A stretch of DNA of 64,000 nucleotides from an archaeon (GCA_041650735.1 JBAZKP010000001.1:310754-374753), one strand, 5' to 3'. Counted from the first letter of the stretch, positions 54,736 to 63,103 are shown. Numbers and translations: made by a program. The notes: generated from the letters alone by a model not told the origin.

Positions 54736-55509
54736 TTACTTCCCTTCCTTATCAATAAAAGCAATTGATGCATATCCTACAACATTATTTTTGTTCCCTG
54801 AAGTGTCCCCTGAATTCTTGTATTCAAGGAGCAAAGGTTTCCATCCATATTTTTTTGCCAAAATAATTAAAACAGCAATACCTGTTTTGCCGCAAGCATC
54901 ACCTGATTCAATAAATGTATTTAAGTCAAGTTTAAGAACAGAATCAATTGACTCAGAATCAGATTTTTTTGCTAAATCATACGAAAGATAATGACTCAAA
55001 TCAGAGCTTGCAATGAACACAGTTTCTTTTTCAGAAAACTTTTCAATGATTTCACCAAGCTTCTTTGCAGAAATTTCACCATAAATAATAGGAGTAAAAG
55101 CAAATTTTTTCAAAACCTTTTGAAGAAAAGGAACTTGTACCTCAAGGCAATGCTCCTGATCATTTTTAATAACAGGCAAATCATTTTTTGAAACACTTAT
55201 TGAGCCTAAAGGAGTAACCCATTTTCCTTCAAAACTATTTGCTCCCTCAACAAAGTCATGATGGCTTGGGCCAAAAAGAACAATACGCTTTGGCTTTGCT
55301 TTTTTTAAAGCGCTGAAAGCAAAAGCAGCAACCTGTCCTGAATAAACATATCCTGCATGAGGAACAACAAGAGCCCTGAGTTTTCCGTTTATTTTTTTCT
55401 GTTCAGAATTTTTTAAAAAACCACCAATCATTTCAGAAAGAGCTTTTTTTCCAGACGGGTAAAAACTCCCTGCATACAAAGCATTCCTTGTAGTTTTTTG
55501 TTCCCTCAT
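54736..55509 (-). CDS. amrB: AmmeMemoRadiSam system protein B (MEMO1 family)
   Basis: AGSFYP, VPHAGYVYSG, GPSH, EHCLEVQVPF, SSDLSHY, ACG, VVGYASI. Confidence 0.9.
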   Translation of the reverse strand: MREQKTTRNALYAGSFYPSGKKALSEMIGGFLKNSEQKKINGKLRALVVPHAGYVYSGQVAAFAFSALKKAKPKRIVLFGPSHHDFVEGANSFEGKWVTPLGSISVSKNDLPVIKNDQEHCLEVQVPFLQKVLKKFAFTPIIYGEISAKKLGEIIEKFSEKETVFIASSDLSHYLSYDLAKKSDSESIDSVLKLDLNTFIESGDACGKTGIAVLIILAKKYGWKPLLLEYKNSGDTSGNKNNVVGYASIAFIDKEGK

Positions 55510-55529
55510 AATAGTTTCACTTTCATAAA

Positions 55530-56558
55530 TTAATCAAAAATTCCTTTAATTTTTTCTCCGCACCTAATGCATTTCCCTTTGTTTAATTCAAGAACCTGCG
55601 CATTAAACCCATCTCTCTTAATGAGCAAAGTATTGCATTTAGGGCAATAAGTATTTTCATTTCCCGCCCTAATATTTCCCCCATAAACAAAATTTAATCC
55701 AGTTTCTTTTCCAATTCTTACTGCGCGCATAATTTCCTCGGAACTTGCCGGTCGCACATTATTCATTCTGTGAGTAGGAAAAAAAGCGCTAACATGCCAA
55801 GGGATATTTTTGTCAATGCTGTGAATAAAATCTGCGATTTGTTCCAGTTCTTCACCAGAATCATTTTTTCCAGGAATAAGAAGAGTGGTAAGCTCGATCC
55901 AGGTTCCTGTTTTATAAAAATCCTTAATGCATTTCAAAACTTTTTCAAGTTCTGCTCCGCAAATTTTTCTGTAAAAATCTGCATTAAATGATTTCAAATC
56001 AATGTTTGTCGCATCAAGCCTTGTTTTTGATTTTTTTAATTCAGTTATTTGTTCCTCGCTTGCATAACCATTGCTCACATACACTGTGCCGAGTTTTGGT
56101 TTCTGTTTTTTTGCAAGCTTAATTGCGTCAATATTATATTCCACGCTAATTGCAGGCTCGTTATAGGTAATAGCAATGCTTTTTGCAGAGCTTTTTTTTG
56201 CAAAAGAAATAAATTCTTTTGGTGAAACAGTTTCAATTTTTTTTACTTGCTCTTCGAGTAATTTTCCCCTCATACAGGAAATATCATAATTCTGGCAAAA
56301 GTCGCATCTAAAATTGCATCCAAAAAAACCAATGCTTGCAACCGTGCTGCCCGGCAAGTAATGAAACAAAGGTTTTTTTTCTATAGGATCAATATGCAAA
56401 GAACAGGGTTTTGAATGAGTAAGAAGAATTATTTTTCCTTCTATATTTTTCCTTGCACCGCACAAACCGAAACGATTTTCAGGAATAATGCAGTTATGCC
56501 TGCAGGCAAGACACCTAATATTCCCTGATTTTTCTTTTTTAAAAAAAACTTTTTCCAT
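55530..56558 (-). CDS. amrS: AmmeMemoRadiSam radical SAM enzyme
   Basis: DPIEKKPLFHY, GCNFRCDFCQN (CxxxCxxC), TYNEP, C-terminal CPKC/CIRC zinc sites. Confidence 0.92.
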   Translation of the reverse strand: MEKVFFKKEKSGNIRCLACRHNCIIPENRFGLCGARKNIEGKIILLTHSKPCSLHIDPIEKKPLFHYLPGSTVASIGFFGCNFRCDFCQNYDISCMRGKLLEEQVKKIETVSPKEFISFAKKSSAKSIAITYNEPAISVEYNIDAIKLAKKQKPKLGTVYVSNGYASEEQITELKKSKTRLDATNIDLKSFNADFYRKICGAELEKVLKCIKDFYKTGTWIELTTLLIPGKNDSGEELEQIADFIHSIDKNIPWHVSAFFPTHRMNNVRPASSEEIMRAVRIGKETGLNFVYGGNIRAGNENTYCPKCNTLLIKRDGFNAQVLELNKGKCIRCGEKIKGIFD

Positions 56559-57064: not shown

Positions 57065-59758
57065 ATGCAAAAAAGAATTCTAGTACTATTTTTTGTTCTG
57101 ATACTTGCATTAACAGCTTTTGCTACTGATGGTAATAACACTGATTCAAATAGCATTGCTTGTGTTGCCGTGTATGACCCGGTTTGTGGTTCTGATGGAA
57201 TAACTTATTCAAATTCTTGTTACGCGGGATTAGCAGGAGTAAGTATTGCTTATGATGGAGAATGTACTGTTGACTCAAATGCTACTTGTACAAGGGAAGG
57301 AGAAAGTTATCCAGTTGTTCCTGGGTATAAGTGCTGCGAAGGATTAACAGGAATACAACCAACCGCAACGCTAGTTGGTGATGAATGTAAAATGATGGTT
57401 GGTTCAACCCTTTGCTCTAATTGTGGAAATGGAACATGTGAAAAATGGGAAAACAAATGTAATTGCCCAAGCGATTGTTCAAGTACGATTTGTGCAAATA
57501 CGGGCGAGGCTGTTTATATTACTGAAGATTTTGGCCCCACTTATTGTTGTAGTAAAAACGATGGAGTAAAGCCAGTTGTATTTTATAGTGAAGGTGCGTG
57601 TATAGCACCAACTAATGGGCAGAAAGGAACTTGTGTTGCTATTTGGTGGAAAACTTGTGGGGATGGATACTGTGATTCAGCAACAGAAGATAAATGCAAT
57701 TGTGAAAAGGATTGTGATAAAACTCAAAAAGAAAGAGCGGCACTTGGAGAAAAATTTGATCTCTCACAAGGAAAAAACATTATTATTTTTGATAGCAAAG
57801 AAGGCACCATTTCAAGTACTTCAGATTTATTCACAGTGCAACTTGATTCAGTAATGGAATTAAAGACGCAAGTTGAAGCATGTGCCCCTGGTGCCATGTG
57901 TCCTATTCCTGTTGATTCAATAGCAGAACTAACAGTTACAGGAATATGCAATGCTCCTGAAGGGGCTGTGTGTGGAGTTGCTGCAATGAGGGTGAAAGTG
58001 GCAATTAGGGACAAAGCGGAAATTTTTTCTGATTATGAAATAAGTTTTTTGAACTTTTCAAGCAATGTAGCAACATTTGTGGTTAAGAAAAAAATACCTG
58101 AAATTTGTCCAAGCCTTTATGACCCTGTGTGCGGTGGAAAAGAAATATGTGTTAAGTGTGCTTCAATATTAACAAGTGACTCTAATACAAGTAGTAATGA
58201 TAAGTGCCTTAATGGCGGAGGATGTTTTGTAGAGCAAAAAACTTATGCAAACAAATGCATAATGGAATTAGAGGGAGCAAAATTCCTTTACGCTGGAGAA
58301 TGTGGCGCAGCAAAAACAAATTACAGAAATGCTTATTGGCAATGCACTAATGGAAAAGAATACAAAGAAGGAGGAGAAAGTTCATGCAAACCAGAAAGCC
58401 TTTGGAGACAATATGCTGATGAATCCTGTAAAAAAGCATGTAATGAGGATTCAAATTCAACAAATGTTTCAGGTTATGAAAAATGCGGAATAAAATCATT
58501 TAGTGTTTCAAACGAATGTTCTGATAATGAATTAACTTGCGGGGGAATACAAGGAAAAATGTGCCCTGAAGGATATTATTGTGTTTACAAAGGAAATTAT
58601 CCTGATGCTGATGGAAAATGCGTAAAAAAACCTTTAGGGGATTTCTATAAAGGAGCTTATTGGAAATGCAGTAATGGGAAAGAATACAAGGAAACTTCAG
58701 AAAAGTGTTTGTCGAGTGCGGAATGGAAAAATATTGCGAGAAAAAAATGCGGAGCAATGAGTGCTAACTGCGCAACAAGCACAACCCCCACAGTTGTTTC
58801 AGTTCCACCAACAGAATCTGTTGCACAGGACCCTATACAAAGTCAAGCAGCTCCTTCAAGTCCAATCACTGCTTTTATTCTTGCAATTGTCAACCCAATT
58901 ACACAAGCTTCAGTTGTAAACCAAACAACAACTTCTGGGGGAGCAGGCGGAAATTCTGCAAACACAATAAATTCCGCAAACTCAATAAATGCAATTAATG
59001 CAAATACACAAACAGAAACTAATTGCGGTGGGGAAGTGTTTGTTTCAGAATTTCAGCTTTTTGATGAATGCACTCCAAAGGCATGCACGCATTATATTGA
59101 TATGAATGGTTGTCAGGTAAAAAAATGTGAAGGTGAAACAGAACAAAGCTATTGTCCTGGTGAATGCAGAAACCAGAATATTGATGAAATAAAAAACATA
59201 AAAGAAGAGTGTGCTAAAAACAATGGACAAGTAATCGCAAGTATTAATGAAAAAGGTTGTTCATTATATGTTTGTACAAAAAATATTGATGCAAATACGT
59301 GTATGAAAAAAGCAAGCGTGCCTGAAGAAAAATACCTTTCCTGCAAAGAAAAAGGGGGAGAATTAATTGTTAAAGAGCTTGGAAATGGCTGCGTATCTTT
59401 CATTGATTGCATAGGATCAACAAGTGATACGAACACAGTAAAAGTTCCTGAACCAACTGATTTACTTGAACTTGCATTAAAACTTGAAAACTTAAACATA
59501 GAATTAGGAAAATTAAAGGTAAAACTTACAGCAATACAAAACTATTACATTGATACAAATAATACAACTGATGCAAACAGAATAGGGAATGCAATAACCG
59601 TGCTGGTTTCAATAGAAACAAAAATTGTTGAATTAAGGGCAGAAATAAAAGAAAAAATAAATAATTTTACTGAAGAAGATGCAAGTGCTTTGAGAGAAGG
59701 AATAAGAGAAATAAAAGAAACAAAAATAAAAGAACTAGTAATAGCGTTGCTTGGATAA
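57065..59758 (+). CDS. Secreted Cys-rich protein with two Kazal-type domains and C-terminal coiled coil
   Basis: Signal peptide; CVAVYDPVCGSDGITYSNSC...YDGEC; second Kazal with insert; repeated Y(R/K)xAYWxCxNGKEYKE; coiled-coil tail. Confidence 0.8.
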   Translation: MQKRILVLFFVLILALTAFATDGNNTDSNSIACVAVYDPVCGSDGITYSNSCYAGLAGVSIAYDGECTVDSNATCTREGESYPVVPGYKCCEGLTGIQPTATLVGDECKMMVGSTLCSNCGNGTCEKWENKCNCPSDCSSTICANTGEAVYITEDFGPTYCCSKNDGVKPVVFYSEGACIAPTNGQKGTCVAIWWKTCGDGYCDSATEDKCNCEKDCDKTQKERAALGEKFDLSQGKNIIIFDSKEGTISSTSDLFTVQLDSVMELKTQVEACAPGAMCPIPVDSIAELTVTGICNAPEGAVCGVAAMRVKVAIRDKAEIFSDYEISFLNFSSNVATFVVKKKIPEICPSLYDPVCGGKEICVKCASILTSDSNTSSNDKCLNGGGCFVEQKTYANKCIMELEGAKFLYAGECGAAKTNYRNAYWQCTNGKEYKEGGESSCKPESLWRQYADESCKKACNEDSNSTNVSGYEKCGIKSFSVSNECSDNELTCGGIQGKMCPEGYYCVYKGNYPDADGKCVKKPLGDFYKGAYWKCSNGKEYKETSEKCLSSAEWKNIARKKCGAMSANCATSTTPTVVSVPPTESVAQDPIQSQAAPSSPITAFILAIVNPITQASVVNQTTTSGGAGGNSANTINSANSINAINANTQTETNCGGEVFVSEFQLFDECTPKACTHYIDMNGCQVKKCEGETEQSYCPGECRNQNIDEIKNIKEECAKNNGQVIASINEKGCSLYVCTKNIDANTCMKKASVPEEKYLSCKEKGGELIVKELGNGCVSFIDCIGSTSDTNTVKVPEPTDLLELALKLENLNIELGKLKVKLTAIQNYYIDTNNTTDANRIGNAITVLVSIETKIVELRAEIKEKINNFTEEDASALREGIREIKETKIKELVIALLG

Positions 59759-60072: not shown

Positions 60073-60978
60073 ATGTCTAAACAAAAAACTTTTTTCCCTG
60101 AAGAGTTCATTGAAAAATATGAAACCCTGCTTGGGGAAGAATGGCCAGCATTTTTTTCCTGCATCCAGCGCAAACAGCCAAAGGCATTTTGGCTTAATAC
60201 AAATAAAGCGCTTCCAAAAGAAACAATTACTTCGCTTGAAAATCATGGGGTAAATCTCAAACAATTACCATTTCATTTACAGGCTTTTAGCATTGATTAT
60301 GAAAGGCCGGGAACATTAAGGGAATTTGAGTTTGGCAAAATATCTTTACAGGAAAAAGCCGCAATGTTGCCAGCGATTGTTGTTGCTCCGCGAGAAAATG
60401 ATTTAGTGCTTGATGCATGTGCTGCGCCAGGAATGAAAACAATACAACTAAGTACACTCATGCATAATAAAGGCAAAATAATTGCATGTGATGTTAACAG
60501 TGAACGCACAAAATCACTTGAACACAATAAAACAAAATATGGGTTAAATAATGTGGAAATAAAACGCATGGATTTCAGGAACCTGTTGCCTGAATATAAA
60601 GAAAAATTTGATAAGATTTTACTTGATGCCCCTTGTTCAAGCGAAGGGCTTGTAAGAAAAGATAGGGAAGCACTGAAAGGGTGGGCAACAAAACTTGTTG
60701 AGAGAAAAGCCCAAACACAAAAAGAACTTATACTTGCTGGATTTGACTTATTGAAGAAAGGGGGAGAACTTGTTTATGCTACCTGTTCTTTTGCTCCTGA
60801 AGAAAACGAAGAAGTTGTACTCAAATTGTTGGACAAATTTGGTAATGCTGAAGTTTTGAAAGTAGAATTATCTGGAATAAAAATCAGAGAAAATAAATTA
60901 TGTAAGAATTGTGTTAGGTTGTATCCACAGGATAATGACACTCAACAGTTCTTTTTTGCAAAAATAAGAAAAAATTGA
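60073..60978 (+). CDS. RsmB/NOP2 family RNA m5C methyltransferase
   Basis: LQEKAAM, VLDACAAPGMKT, ILLDAPCSSEG, VYATCSFAPEENE motifs. Confidence 0.9.
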   Translation: MSKQKTFFPEEFIEKYETLLGEEWPAFFSCIQRKQPKAFWLNTNKALPKETITSLENHGVNLKQLPFHLQAFSIDYERPGTLREFEFGKISLQEKAAMLPAIVVAPRENDLVLDACAAPGMKTIQLSTLMHNKGKIIACDVNSERTKSLEHNKTKYGLNNVEIKRMDFRNLLPEYKEKFDKILLDAPCSSEGLVRKDREALKGWATKLVERKAQTQKELILAGFDLLKKGGELVYATCSFAPEENEEVVLKLLDKFGNAEVLKVELSGIKIRENKLCKNCVRLYPQDNDTQQFFFAKIRKN

Positions 60979-60995: not shown

Positions 60996-62126
60996 TTAAG
61001 GAATAATTTCTGCACAATTATATTTTAAGAATTGTAAATTTTTTTTCTTTATTTTCTTTTCTCCAATTAGTTTCTTCACGCACGGAGAAATTCTTTCCAT
61101 TTCTGAAATTAAGTGTTCAATTGTCATACAAATTTCTTTAACTCCTTTTTTTGGCCAAACAGGATTCAAATTACTATACAAACACCTGCCTCCGCATAAT
61201 TCATACAAATTACATTTATTGCAAGGGGCGCCAACAACCAACCTAAAAGGTAATTTTTGCGGGGTTGTCTTCCTAATATTCCCAAGATAATATTCTTTTA
61301 CTCCCGACATTATTGGGCAGGAAGAAATTTTCCCATTAGGGAGAATAGTAAAGTTGCCTACTCCTGAACCGCATCTTAGATAATATTTAGTCTCATAAAG
61401 CAAAGAATCAACTAATCCCATGAAAGGATATAAACGCAAAACAGTTCCTTGTTCCAATTTTTTTACCCAGTAATCAGCAAGCTTGGAAATATCCTTGTTG
61501 TATTGCTTATTCCATTCTGAAAAATTTCTTTTCTCGTAATCATGCCACATGTTTGCATCTAATTGCCAGTGCACTGAAGAAAACACAAAAGCTTCCTTGT
61601 TTTTTGGTTCAACCAAATCCATTACATCTGTAAAAAAATTTGTTGGTTCTTCCACAGTCATTCTAGCAATGATTTCTCCATTAAAACCGTTTTTTCTTAT
61701 TAATTTTAAATTAGAAGTAACTTTCTCCCAAGTGGCTTCTCCGCGATTCTTATTAGTCCTTTCCTTTCCTCCGTCAATTGAAATAAGGATTGTGTGGAAC
61801 CTGTTAACATATTTTGAAGGAAGCTTGTCAAGCAAGGTTCCATTAGTTTGAATCAAAAAGTTTTTTACTGTTTTGTATTTTTCTTGTGAATCCATTACTT
61901 TTTTTATAAAATCAATGTTCAGCAACGGCTCCCCGCCGTAAAAAATAATTGAAACAGGCTTATCCAGGTCTTTCTTTAGGAAATTATTTAGTTCATCTAA
62001 AGAATACTCAGGCTTTGAAGGCACAGGTTCAAATTTTAATTTTGATTCAGGCTCGGAAAAGGATTTTCCACAGCAGTACTCACAGCATAAATTACATTCA
62101 GGAGTGGTAATAATATGATAAATCAT
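60996..62126 (-). CDS. Radical SAM/SPASM protein (AF0577/TIGR04084-like)
   Basis: CNLCCEYC, FYGGEPLL, SIDG, SPASM Cys set (CGSG...SCP...CNKC...CGGRC), C-terminal EIIP. Confidence 0.75.
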   Translation of the reverse strand: MIYHIITTPECNLCCEYCCGKSFSEPESKLKFEPVPSKPEYSLDELNNFLKKDLDKPVSIIFYGGEPLLNIDFIKKVMDSQEKYKTVKNFLIQTNGTLLDKLPSKYVNRFHTILISIDGGKERTNKNRGEATWEKVTSNLKLIRKNGFNGEIIARMTVEEPTNFFTDVMDLVEPKNKEAFVFSSVHWQLDANMWHDYEKRNFSEWNKQYNKDISKLADYWVKKLEQGTVLRLYPFMGLVDSLLYETKYYLRCGSGVGNFTILPNGKISSCPIMSGVKEYYLGNIRKTTPQKLPFRLVVGAPCNKCNLYELCGGRCLYSNLNPVWPKKGVKEICMTIEHLISEMERISPCVKKLIGEKKIKKKNLQFLKYNCAEIIP

Positions 62127-62161
62127 ACTAAATTCTTTTTGGAAAAGTAATAAAAATGCAG

Positions 62162-63103
62162 TTAAAACTCTTTTGAAAAGTCAATTCCTTTAATATATTT
62201 CTCAACACCTTGTTTTCCATCCATACTCTCTTTCTTTGCAATATTAATATAACCTTTCATGCTTAGTTTCTTCAAAAACACAGGCATGTTGCTTTTTACT
62301 CCCGGTCCGCCAATACATCCACCGGAGCAAAACAAAATGTCATAAAACACTTTGCCCGAATGCTTACTAAACAAATCCAGCAAATCCTTACAATTATCAC
62401 AGGAAACCATCTGCTCTTTTTTCAAAATACTTTTTGAATGAAGGGTTGCACTTAATCCTCCTGAAAGTGGGTAAATCTTAGTGTAATCATTATAGAATGA
62501 ATCAAATTTATGGGAAACTTTTTTTGGAACAGTTTTTTCTTTTGACAAAATTTTTTTCAGTTCATAAAAAGTTATTACTCCTTCAATTAATTTTTTTCCT
62601 TTTTTATTAACTAATTTTTCAGCTTCAAGTTTTTTCGCGGCGCAAGGGGAAAGAAAAACAATTTTGTGTTTTGGAAAACTTTTTTTCACAATCTTAGCCA
62701 TTGCCCCCATAGGTGAATCAAAAGGCATTAAATATTTTTTTAATTCAGGAAAACGGTTCTTTATCAGCTCAATTGAGGAGGGGCAGACACTTGCAATAAA
62801 TTTTTCTTGAAAATTTTTATCCTTTTTTTTTCCATTCTTAACATAATCAGTGAAATGTTCCTTAATGTATTTGTGGTAATGCATATTTACCACTTTTGCC
62901 CCAAAAGTAAGTTCAGTCACTTTATCAAAACCAAGCGATTTCATCAAGGGTACAAATGAAAAATAATCGAAATCGACTACAAAGCTTGGGGCGGTCATTA
63001 AACAGATTTTTGCGCCATTTTTTTTCTTTGATTGCGCAAGCAAAGACAAAACCTTTTTTTGGTCAGAGTTATACCCGGGGATTTTAAAAAAAGTATTTGC
63101 CAT
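62162..63103 (-). CDS. Minimal [FeFe]-hydrogenase-like H-cluster domain protein
   Basis: APSF, ASVCPS (P1), SPCAAKKLE (P2), FCSGGCIGGPG (P3); four H-cluster Cys and Lys present; no ferredoxin domains. Confidence 0.75.
   Translation of the reverse strand: MANTFFKIPGYNSDQKKVLSLLAQSKKKNGAKICLMTAPSFVVDFDYFSFVPLMKSLGFDKVTELTFGAKVVNMHYHKYIKEHFTDYVKNGKKKDKNFQEKFIASVCPSSIELIKNRFPELKKYLMPFDSPMGAMAKIVKKSFPKHKIVFLSPCAAKKLEAEKLVNKKGKKLIEGVITFYELKKILSKEKTVPKKVSHKFDSFYNDYTKIYPLSGGLSATLHSKSILKKEQMVSCDNCKDLLDLFSKHSGKVFYDILFCSGGCIGGPGVKSNMPVFLKKLSMKGYINIAKKESMDGKQGVEKYIKGIDFSKEF

Follow-up and report, generated by a model that had tools for sequence, protein, structure and literature searches.

A probable ultraminimal group E [FeFe] hydrogenase in a DPANN archaeon of the phylum Iainarchaeota

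The 64,000-nucleotide stretch of archaeal DNA analyzed here (the window) carries a gene for a short protein that resembles the catalytic H-domain of [FeFe] hydrogenases and has replacements at positions important for catalysis in prototypical enzymes. This raises the question of whether the protein is a minimal enzyme that releases fermentative H2 or an Fe-S protein of other function, the two options named in an earlier note on this DNA. The gene is the following.

62162 to 63103, minus strand: hydA, putative group E "ultraminimal" [FeFe] hydrogenase, 313 aa, 35.5 kDa, H-domain only

The description of this gene as a 313-aa stand-alone H-domain holds. The open reading frame is real and starts with ATG, and its product matches the Pfam family Fe_hyd_lg_C (PF02906) over residues 33 to 267, which cover profile positions 3 to 245 of 245 (E = 2.8e-38). 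Pfam gave PF02906 alone and no further domain in the 313-aa protein, in agreement with the reported absence of accessory Fe-S domains, so that the protein shares the H-domain-only architecture of group E. The top NCBIfam match was TIGR04105, the group B model, with 123 bits against a cutoff of 450, and the match is limited to the C-terminal half of the profile (positions 208 to 460 of 462); TIGR02512 scored 59.6 against a cutoff of 406. An AlphaFold2 model built with 27 homologs as input reached a pLDDT of 89.1 and a pTM of 0.88, and the best PDB matches returned by Foldseek for this model were all [FeFe] hydrogenase H-domains (CbA5H, CpI, and HydABC among them), with TM-scores of 0.72 to 0.76 normalized to the query length.

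The protein is longer than the average of about 286 aa given for group E because of a loop insertion, seen as a gap in the presumed biochemically characterized group E enzyme introduced below.

62804 to 62860, minus strand: Lys-rich loop insertion of 19 residues (approximately residues 82 to 100)

The blocks of this loop were modeled with a pLDDT of 67 to 69, and in the motif table compiled for the family the loop is present only in the protein itself and in loci L008, L010, and L013, which are its closest relatives.

The active-site residues were located through a phmmer alignment to the hydrogenase CpI of Clostridium pasteurianum, which gave the following equivalences.

62984 to 62992, minus strand: A38-P39-S40, aligned with CpI A230-P231-S232 ([2Fe] subcluster pocket, CN- contact)
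62777 to 62794, minus strand: P1 motif A-S-V-C-P-S, residues 104 to 109, aligned with CpI TSCCPG
62630 to 62650, minus strand: P2 motif S-P-C-A-A-K-K, residues 152 to 158, aligned with CpI MPCTSKK
62303 to 62332, minus strand: P3 motif F-C-S-G-G-C-I-G-G-P, residues 258 to 267, with LFCSGGC aligned with CpI MACHGGC

The three motifs lie where they had first been read, and the four H-cluster cysteines and the P2 lysine are all present: C107 corresponds to CpI C300, a ligand of the [4Fe-4S] cluster, C154 to C355, K157 to K358, C259 to C499, and C263 to C503, the bridging cysteine. S130-P131 aligns with S319-P of CpI. [quoted passage not shown] The replacements fall on three other positions, with V106 at the place of the proton-relay residue C299, S152 at that of M353, and L257 at that of M497.

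The earlier note described the catalytic motifs as altered. They are no peculiarity of this gene but the consensus of a family whose members are encoded in 398 species-level genomes. A search at E <= 1e-5 retrieved 1010 homologs of near-equal length, and residue counts were made on the best 120 of these, all of which are about 280 to 330 aa long and contain PF02906 only. Among these 120, A38 and P39 are invariant and S40 is kept in 102. The position of C299 is occupied by V in 98, T in 11, P in 7, and A in 3. The P2 motif takes the form [SA]-P-C-x-A-K-K, in which P, C, and K occur in 120 of 120 and position 152 is divided between S (74) and A (46). The P3 motif takes the form L-F-C-x-G-G-C-I-G-G, with C, G, G, and C invariant or nearly so and L257 present in 111. 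According to the motif table, the ExxE..R proton relay motif is absent from the protein and from all clades of minimal enzymes, whereas groups A and B have it. The same table shows that the C299 position holds V, T, or A in the clade of the window, N together with a Cys three residues upstream in the Forterrea-like clade, V, T, P, or A in Nano-, Woese-, and Pacearchaeota, and P in bacteria of the candidate phyla radiation (CPR).

In prototypical enzymes the replacement of the relay Cys abolishes activity, with the exception of Asp (PMC3485046), and M497L is damaging (PMC10055695). The V and L that the alignment places at these two positions would therefore speak against an active hydrogenase. 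The resemblance to sensory groups that had been remarked upon is borne out, since the sensory enzymes have aliphatic or small side chains in place of C299, M353, and M497 and retain cofactor binding, with lower activity (PMC10055695). Group D enzymes use a proton path that differs from the prototypical one (PMC10407848).

The phylogenetic position of the protein was determined with IQ-TREE (LG+C20+F+G4 PMSF) on 64 rows and 290 columns. The rows comprised 50 minimal enzymes and outgroups from group A (9), group B (3), and group C (2); the set was built without groups D, F, and G, Nar1, and the published Na enzyme. Annotated genes served as outgroups; they were drawn from plasmid records and the same phylum and verified by Pfam and NCBIfam. 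Those of group A were bacterial A and A6 enzymes together with long and minimal A1-type enzymes from Iainarchaeota, those of group B were three proteins that score 560 to 620 bits with TIGR04105, and those of group C were R. albus HydS (locus L096), encoded beside a SpoIIE phosphatase, and an MCP-fused protein from Acetoanaerobium. The protein and the 49 other minimal enzymes formed one clade (ultrafast bootstrap 100, SH-aLRT 99) on a stem of approximately 1.0 change per site, with groups A, B, and C outside it and group C as nearest outgroup on the reference set used. Within this clade, the groups of the window, of Forterrea-like archaea, of Nano-, Woese-, and Pacearchaeota, and of CPR bacteria are each well supported. 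The CPR enzymes, from Saccharibacteria and Dojkabacteria, are 280 to 303 aa long (loci L055, L059 to L061, L064, L068, L069, L075, L079, L080, L082, and L084) and form a well-supported clade inside the otherwise archaeal group E-like one, a placement that implies transfer between domains of life among organisms with small genomes.

The nearest loci in species-representative genomes come from Ca. Forterrea sp., Ca. Iainarchaeum, and genomes labeled only "archaeon," and the host is therefore placed among the DPANN archaea, in Iainarchaeota (Diapherotrites). Its assembly comprises 983,729 bp in 16 contigs, is 88% complete, and contains one PF02906 gene; the window lies on contig 1. Ultraminimal hydrogenases of this kind have been described from DPANN phyla, Iainarchaeota and Nanoarchaeota included, as the H-domain-only group E with an average of 286 aa (Greening et al., Cell 2024; PMC11216029), as the earlier note had remarked. 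By its residues and its position in the tree, the gene is assigned to this group and is of a known kind.

The group E enzyme for which that publication gives activity in its text is Fm, from Ca. Forterrea multitransposorum (PMC11216029). Fm is a 33-kDa protein with one [4Fe-4S] cluster that takes up synthetic [2Fe]adt, shows the H-cluster states Hox, HoxH, and Hred' in FTIR, and works in both directions with a preference for H+ reduction (PMC11216029). In our set, P0121 (286 aa, 33.5 kDa), from the closed one-contig genome G027 (839,632 bp) of the sister family f9, is very probably Fm, its mass agreeing with the published value. The window protein shares 36% identity with P0121 (E = 7e-61) and the same NCBIfam pattern, TIGR04105 first and TIGR02512 second. 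Both belong to the phylum Iainarchaeota, consist of the H-domain without accessory clusters, lie in the clade supported at 100/99, carry F-x-x-P-C-x-x-K-K and D-x-L-F-C-x-G-G-C-x-G-G-P-G, lack ExxE..R, and come from genomes without HydEFG. The phylogeny called for by the earlier note thus places the protein with the presumed Fm and apart from the groups A, B, and C that were included. The two proteins differ in P1, which reads A-S-V-C-P in the window and C-G-N-C-P in the presumed Fm, where a Cys stands three residues upstream, in the 19-residue Lys-rich loop, and in their gene neighborhoods, with Taw1 upstream in the Fm lineage and U32 upstream and a TIGR04084 radical SAM gene downstream in the lineage of the window. 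At the positions of C299, M353, and M497, the window protein has V, S, and L and the presumed Fm has N, G, and L, so that both appear "sensory-like" in the second sphere, yet Fm is active. A literature search found no follow-up biochemistry on group E, and no activity of a Val-type group E enzyme was found in the published text (PMC11216029).

The other groups of [FeFe] hydrogenases fit the protein less well. With groups C and D (TmHydS, TamHydS, and R. albus HydS) it shares a non-Cys residue at C299, a small one at M353, a non-Met one at M497, and the absence of the canonical proton pathway, with Y-x-x-x-[IL]-K-E standing where ExxE would be. These enzymes, however, have N-terminal Fer4 and C-terminal Fe-S, PAS, or MCP parts and adjoin phosphatases or kinases, whereas the window protein has no signaling or additional Fe-S domain, is neighbored by a radical SAM/SPASM gene and a gene for a coiled-coil membrane protein (compare loci L096 and L099), and falls in a separate, strongly supported clade; membership in these sensory groups was rejected. 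Group B provides the best NCBIfam model for the H-domain, but members of this group carry a pair of 2x[4Fe-4S] domains at the N terminus and retain TSCCP and the P3 Met. Prototypical group A was also rejected, given V106, S152, and L257 at key positions, the absence of ExxE..R and of the proton relay C299-E279-S319-E282-R286, and a TIGR02512 score below the cutoff. The archaeal minimal A1 enzymes (Mu and Ia, about 363 aa) are likewise small and stand-alone and occur in the same phylum and order, but they keep TSCCP, MPC, ExxE..R, and the small-subunit domain PF02256 and lie within group A (100/100), far from the window protein.

A further size-reduced enzyme was observed in the phylum. Locus L106 (genomes G003 and G005, family f2) encodes a 363-aa hydrogenase that has the H-domain only, reads TSCCIGW, lacks the small-subunit domain, and forms a long branch inside group A; it represents a second, independent kind of reduction.

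A Nar1- or NARF-like protein had been the remaining option. Such proteins are eukaryotic and have a ferredoxin-like Cys cluster at the N terminus, and for eukaryotic Nar1 an origin from group A is assumed. The window protein has C34 as its sole Cys before P1 and therefore no N-terminal Cys cluster, its host is an archaeon, and its clade lies on the B-C-E side of the tree, away from group A, in a tree that held no Nar1 row; this option found no support.

The metabolic context was read from the host genome. Its gene complement includes a 2-oxoacid:ferredoxin oxidoreductase (POR_N, 225 bits), directly preceded by the gene for a Fer4 subunit, and small 2x[4Fe-4S] ferredoxins; ferredoxin genes lie on contig 1 at 270588 to 270734 and on contig 2 near 119934. 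A [NiFe] hydrogenase was not found in it. The oxidoreductase and the ferredoxins are compatible with fermentative H2 release. Ferredoxin-coupled fermentative H2 production has been proposed for group E, and in Nanoarchaeota genes for 2-oxoacid:ferredoxin oxidoreductase adjoin the hydrogenase (PMC11216029). The maturases HydE, HydF, and HydG, reported missing from the window, gave no profile match above noise in the window or in the 0.98-Mb, 88% complete genome, and profile models were equally negative for every one of the 38 genomes in the taxonomic family, of which 34 carry the hydrogenase. The absence of HydEFG is thus real and not an assembly gap. The host accordingly corresponds to those described for group E, a DPANN archaeon with a small genome (0.98 Mb) and without HydEFG. 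A full HydEFG set was reported from only five of 130 archaeal genomes, which makes its absence a general archaeal feature, and the authors consider that an alternative maturation pathway probably exists (PMC11216029).

Taken with the clade, the residues, and the genome content, these observations favor the first option of the earlier note. We consider it likely that the gene product is an ultraminimal [FeFe] hydrogenase of group E, from an archaeon of the Iainarchaeota, and that fermentative H2 release is its most likely role. The protein would hold one [4Fe-4S] cubane through C107, C154, C259, and C263, with C263 bridging to a [2Fe] subcluster in a pocket lined by A38-P39-S40, S130-P131, K157, and G261-G262. 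The [2Fe] subcluster would be made or acquired in vivo without HydE, HydF, and HydG. With V106 in place of Cys and without ExxE..R, protons must arrive by another route, probably directly from solvent, because published models show the cluster exposed in stripped-down enzymes. By analogy with Fm, H-cluster binding and turnover by such a noncanonical, probably solvent-exposed proton route are to be expected. In the cell, the enzyme would work in the direction of H+ reduction, reoxidizing ferredoxin that 2-oxoacid:ferredoxin oxidoreductase has reduced and releasing H2.

The genes around the hydrogenase were compared across its relatives. Intergenic regions were read by eye. The downstream part of the locus is arranged as follows.

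62127 to 62161, minus strand: 35-nt spacer between the hydrogenase and radical SAM/SPASM genes, with an AT-rich, TATA-like TTTTTATTA approximately 22 to 31 nt before the ATG of the latter
60996 to 62126, minus strand: radical SAM/SPASM protein of the AF0577 family (TIGR04084), 376 aa, 294 bits against a cutoff of 225, with PF04055, Fer4_12, and SPASM
60073 to 60978, plus strand: RsmB/F-type rRNA/tRNA cytosine methyltransferase (PF01189, 1.1e-53)

The co-oriented radical SAM/SPASM gene 35 nt downstream is therefore present as reported. At the spacer, both co-transcription and a separate leaderless promoter appear possible from the sequence. Upstream of the hydrogenase, the window has a divergent gene for a 258-aa coiled-coil membrane protein. 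The order in its family is U32 peptidase, hydrogenase, radical SAM/SPASM; U32 (PF01136, 266 bits) lies upstream on the same strand in 20 of the 31 loci of the clade (L009 to L041), which places three Fe-S-type enzymes in a row, an arrangement that has been lost in the window and in L008, its nearest relative. In the sister family f9 (L090 to L093 and L119 to L132), the wyosine radical SAM gene Taw1 (PF08608 and PF04055) directly precedes the hydrogenase in all 18 loci, always on its strand and in most with a gap of 0 to 16 nt, a tighter coupling than that of any neighbor in the family of the window. Among relatives of the Nano type, the beta subunit of the oxidoreductase overlaps the start of the hydrogenase in 9 of 34 loci, and other neighbors are an MBL-fold protein, an EamA transporter, and a class II aminoacyl-tRNA synthetase; in CPR, cytidine deaminase or CTP synthase is found.

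Other features of the window were recorded along the way. A gene on the plus strand at 57065 to 59758, syntenic across the family, encodes a very Cys-rich 897-aa protein with a signal peptide, a Kazal-type inhibitor-like domain (PF07648/PF00050, E ~2e-6) at its N terminus, and a coiled-coil C terminus. On the minus strand at 54736 to 56558, a Memo-like gene (PF01875) and a radical SAM activase-like gene form the usual AmmeMemoRadiSam pairing, which loci L022 and L067 likewise have close to their hydrogenase gene. A tRNA scan of the 64-kb window found no tRNA genes.

The neighborhoods bear on a different use of a true H-cluster enzyme, namely, that its main function is H2 sensing at low turnover or H2 uptake for neighboring Fe-S enzymes. 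In the uptake version, low-potential electrons would go to U32, to the radical SAM/SPASM protein, and, in the sister family, to Taw1, in place of H2 venting. The second sphere resembles that of groups C and D, with a nonionizable residue at C299, Ser or Gly at M353, and a non-Met residue at M497; the canonical proton relay is missing, and group C is the nearest outgroup on the reference set used. Moreover, in two families of Iainarchaeota a radical SAM gene adjoins the hydrogenase, TIGR04084 in one and the unrelated Taw1 in the other, and the host genome as a whole has only 9 radical SAM genes. Two of the 14 recurrent neighbor clusters are radical SAM, against approximately 1% of genes genome-wide (9 genes), which is a suggestive enrichment near Iainarchaeota hydrogenases, noted post hoc and reflecting two or three events. 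It does not extend to the wider family. In Nano loci, radical SAM candidates amount to 5 of 389 genes, which is the background level, and no candidates with CX3CX2C were found in 12 CPR loci. The coupled neighbor in the Nano-type loci, the oxidoreductase beta subunit, points instead to fermentative H2 release. The protein has no signaling domain, and no longer fused relative was found at E <= 1e-5, although the latter is weak evidence; Fm, with a similar second sphere, is bidirectional and biased to H+ reduction. On balance, a sensor or uptake role is improbable.

It could also be that the protein never receives the [2Fe] subcluster in vivo and works as a plain [4Fe-4S] electron carrier or as an Fe-S handler analogous to Nar1. 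The absence of HydEFG throughout the family agrees with this, as does the origin of the activity data for group E, which in the published text all come from artificial maturation and include no observation in a native host (PMC11216029). The equivalents of K358, P231/S232, and S319-P and the GG of P3 are, however, invariant or nearly so across divergent hosts, and such conservation of the [2Fe] pocket is hard to explain without the cofactor. The lack of a Nar1-type N-terminal Cys motif and the placement on the B-C-E side of the tree speak against it as well, and we regard a [4Fe-4S]-only protein as quite unlikely. To a similarly slight degree we would entertain that the ultraminimal hydrogenase of Iainarchaeota is tied to the adjoining U32, TIGR04084, and Taw1 proteins, either as a redox partner, driven by H2 or venting it, that determines how reduced their clusters are, or through a role of one of them in HydEFG-independent [2Fe] assembly.

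The earlier note had suggested following the conservation of the linkage with the radical SAM gene. It holds only inside one taxonomic family and is missing in the sister family, which includes the presumed Fm. In the clade of the window, 28 of 31 loci have a TIGR04084 gene no more than three genes downstream of the hydrogenase; in 22 it is the next gene, and in some loci insertions of up to 1.9 kb split the pair. RsmB/F accompanies it in 26 related loci, and the block has other conserved genes as well; the whole block being conserved, synteny is not confined to the hydrogenase and radical SAM pair. Co-occurrence was surveyed in 215 genomes of the phylum. Of the 37 genomes of the window's own family, 33 have the hydrogenase and 29 the radical SAM gene (34 of 38 for hydrogenase in the maturase survey); of the 22 in family f9, 20 have the hydrogenase and 2 the radical SAM gene. 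One of these two f9 genomes has no hydrogenase and the other carries the genes on different contigs, and the closed Forterrea-like genome gave no TIGR04084 match. Conversely, the radical SAM gene occurs without any PF02906 in genomes G015, G026, G081, and G150 (97% complete for the last), together with long group A enzymes in others, and also in Sulfolobus acidocaldarius. Outside one family the two distributions are uncoupled, and the radical SAM protein is hence neither required for nor specific to group E; on this genomic evidence it would be a syntenic, inherited neighbor and not a general helper. A HydE- or HydG-type maturase was rejected, as the protein matches TIGR04084 and peptide-maturase models and not TIGR03956 or TIGR03955; among named proteins it is most closely related to maturases of peptides and proteins, PapB and anSME for instance, and a literature search on the function of TIGR04084/AF0577 gave chance matches only. 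That it belongs to a HydEFG-independent route of [2Fe] building or insertion is thus hardly credible, even with the short same-strand gap, its adjacency, in convergent orientation, in the distant Nano/Pacearchaeota loci L076 and L078, and the published argument for an alternative maturation pathway (PMC11216029).

The likely assignment to group E with a role in fermentative H2 release places this archaeon in a family whose small size, unusual relay residues, and missing maturases were already published in 2024, and the gene itself adds little to that picture. As a minimal scaffold with a fully aliphatic residue at the relay position, it may be of some interest for enzyme design.
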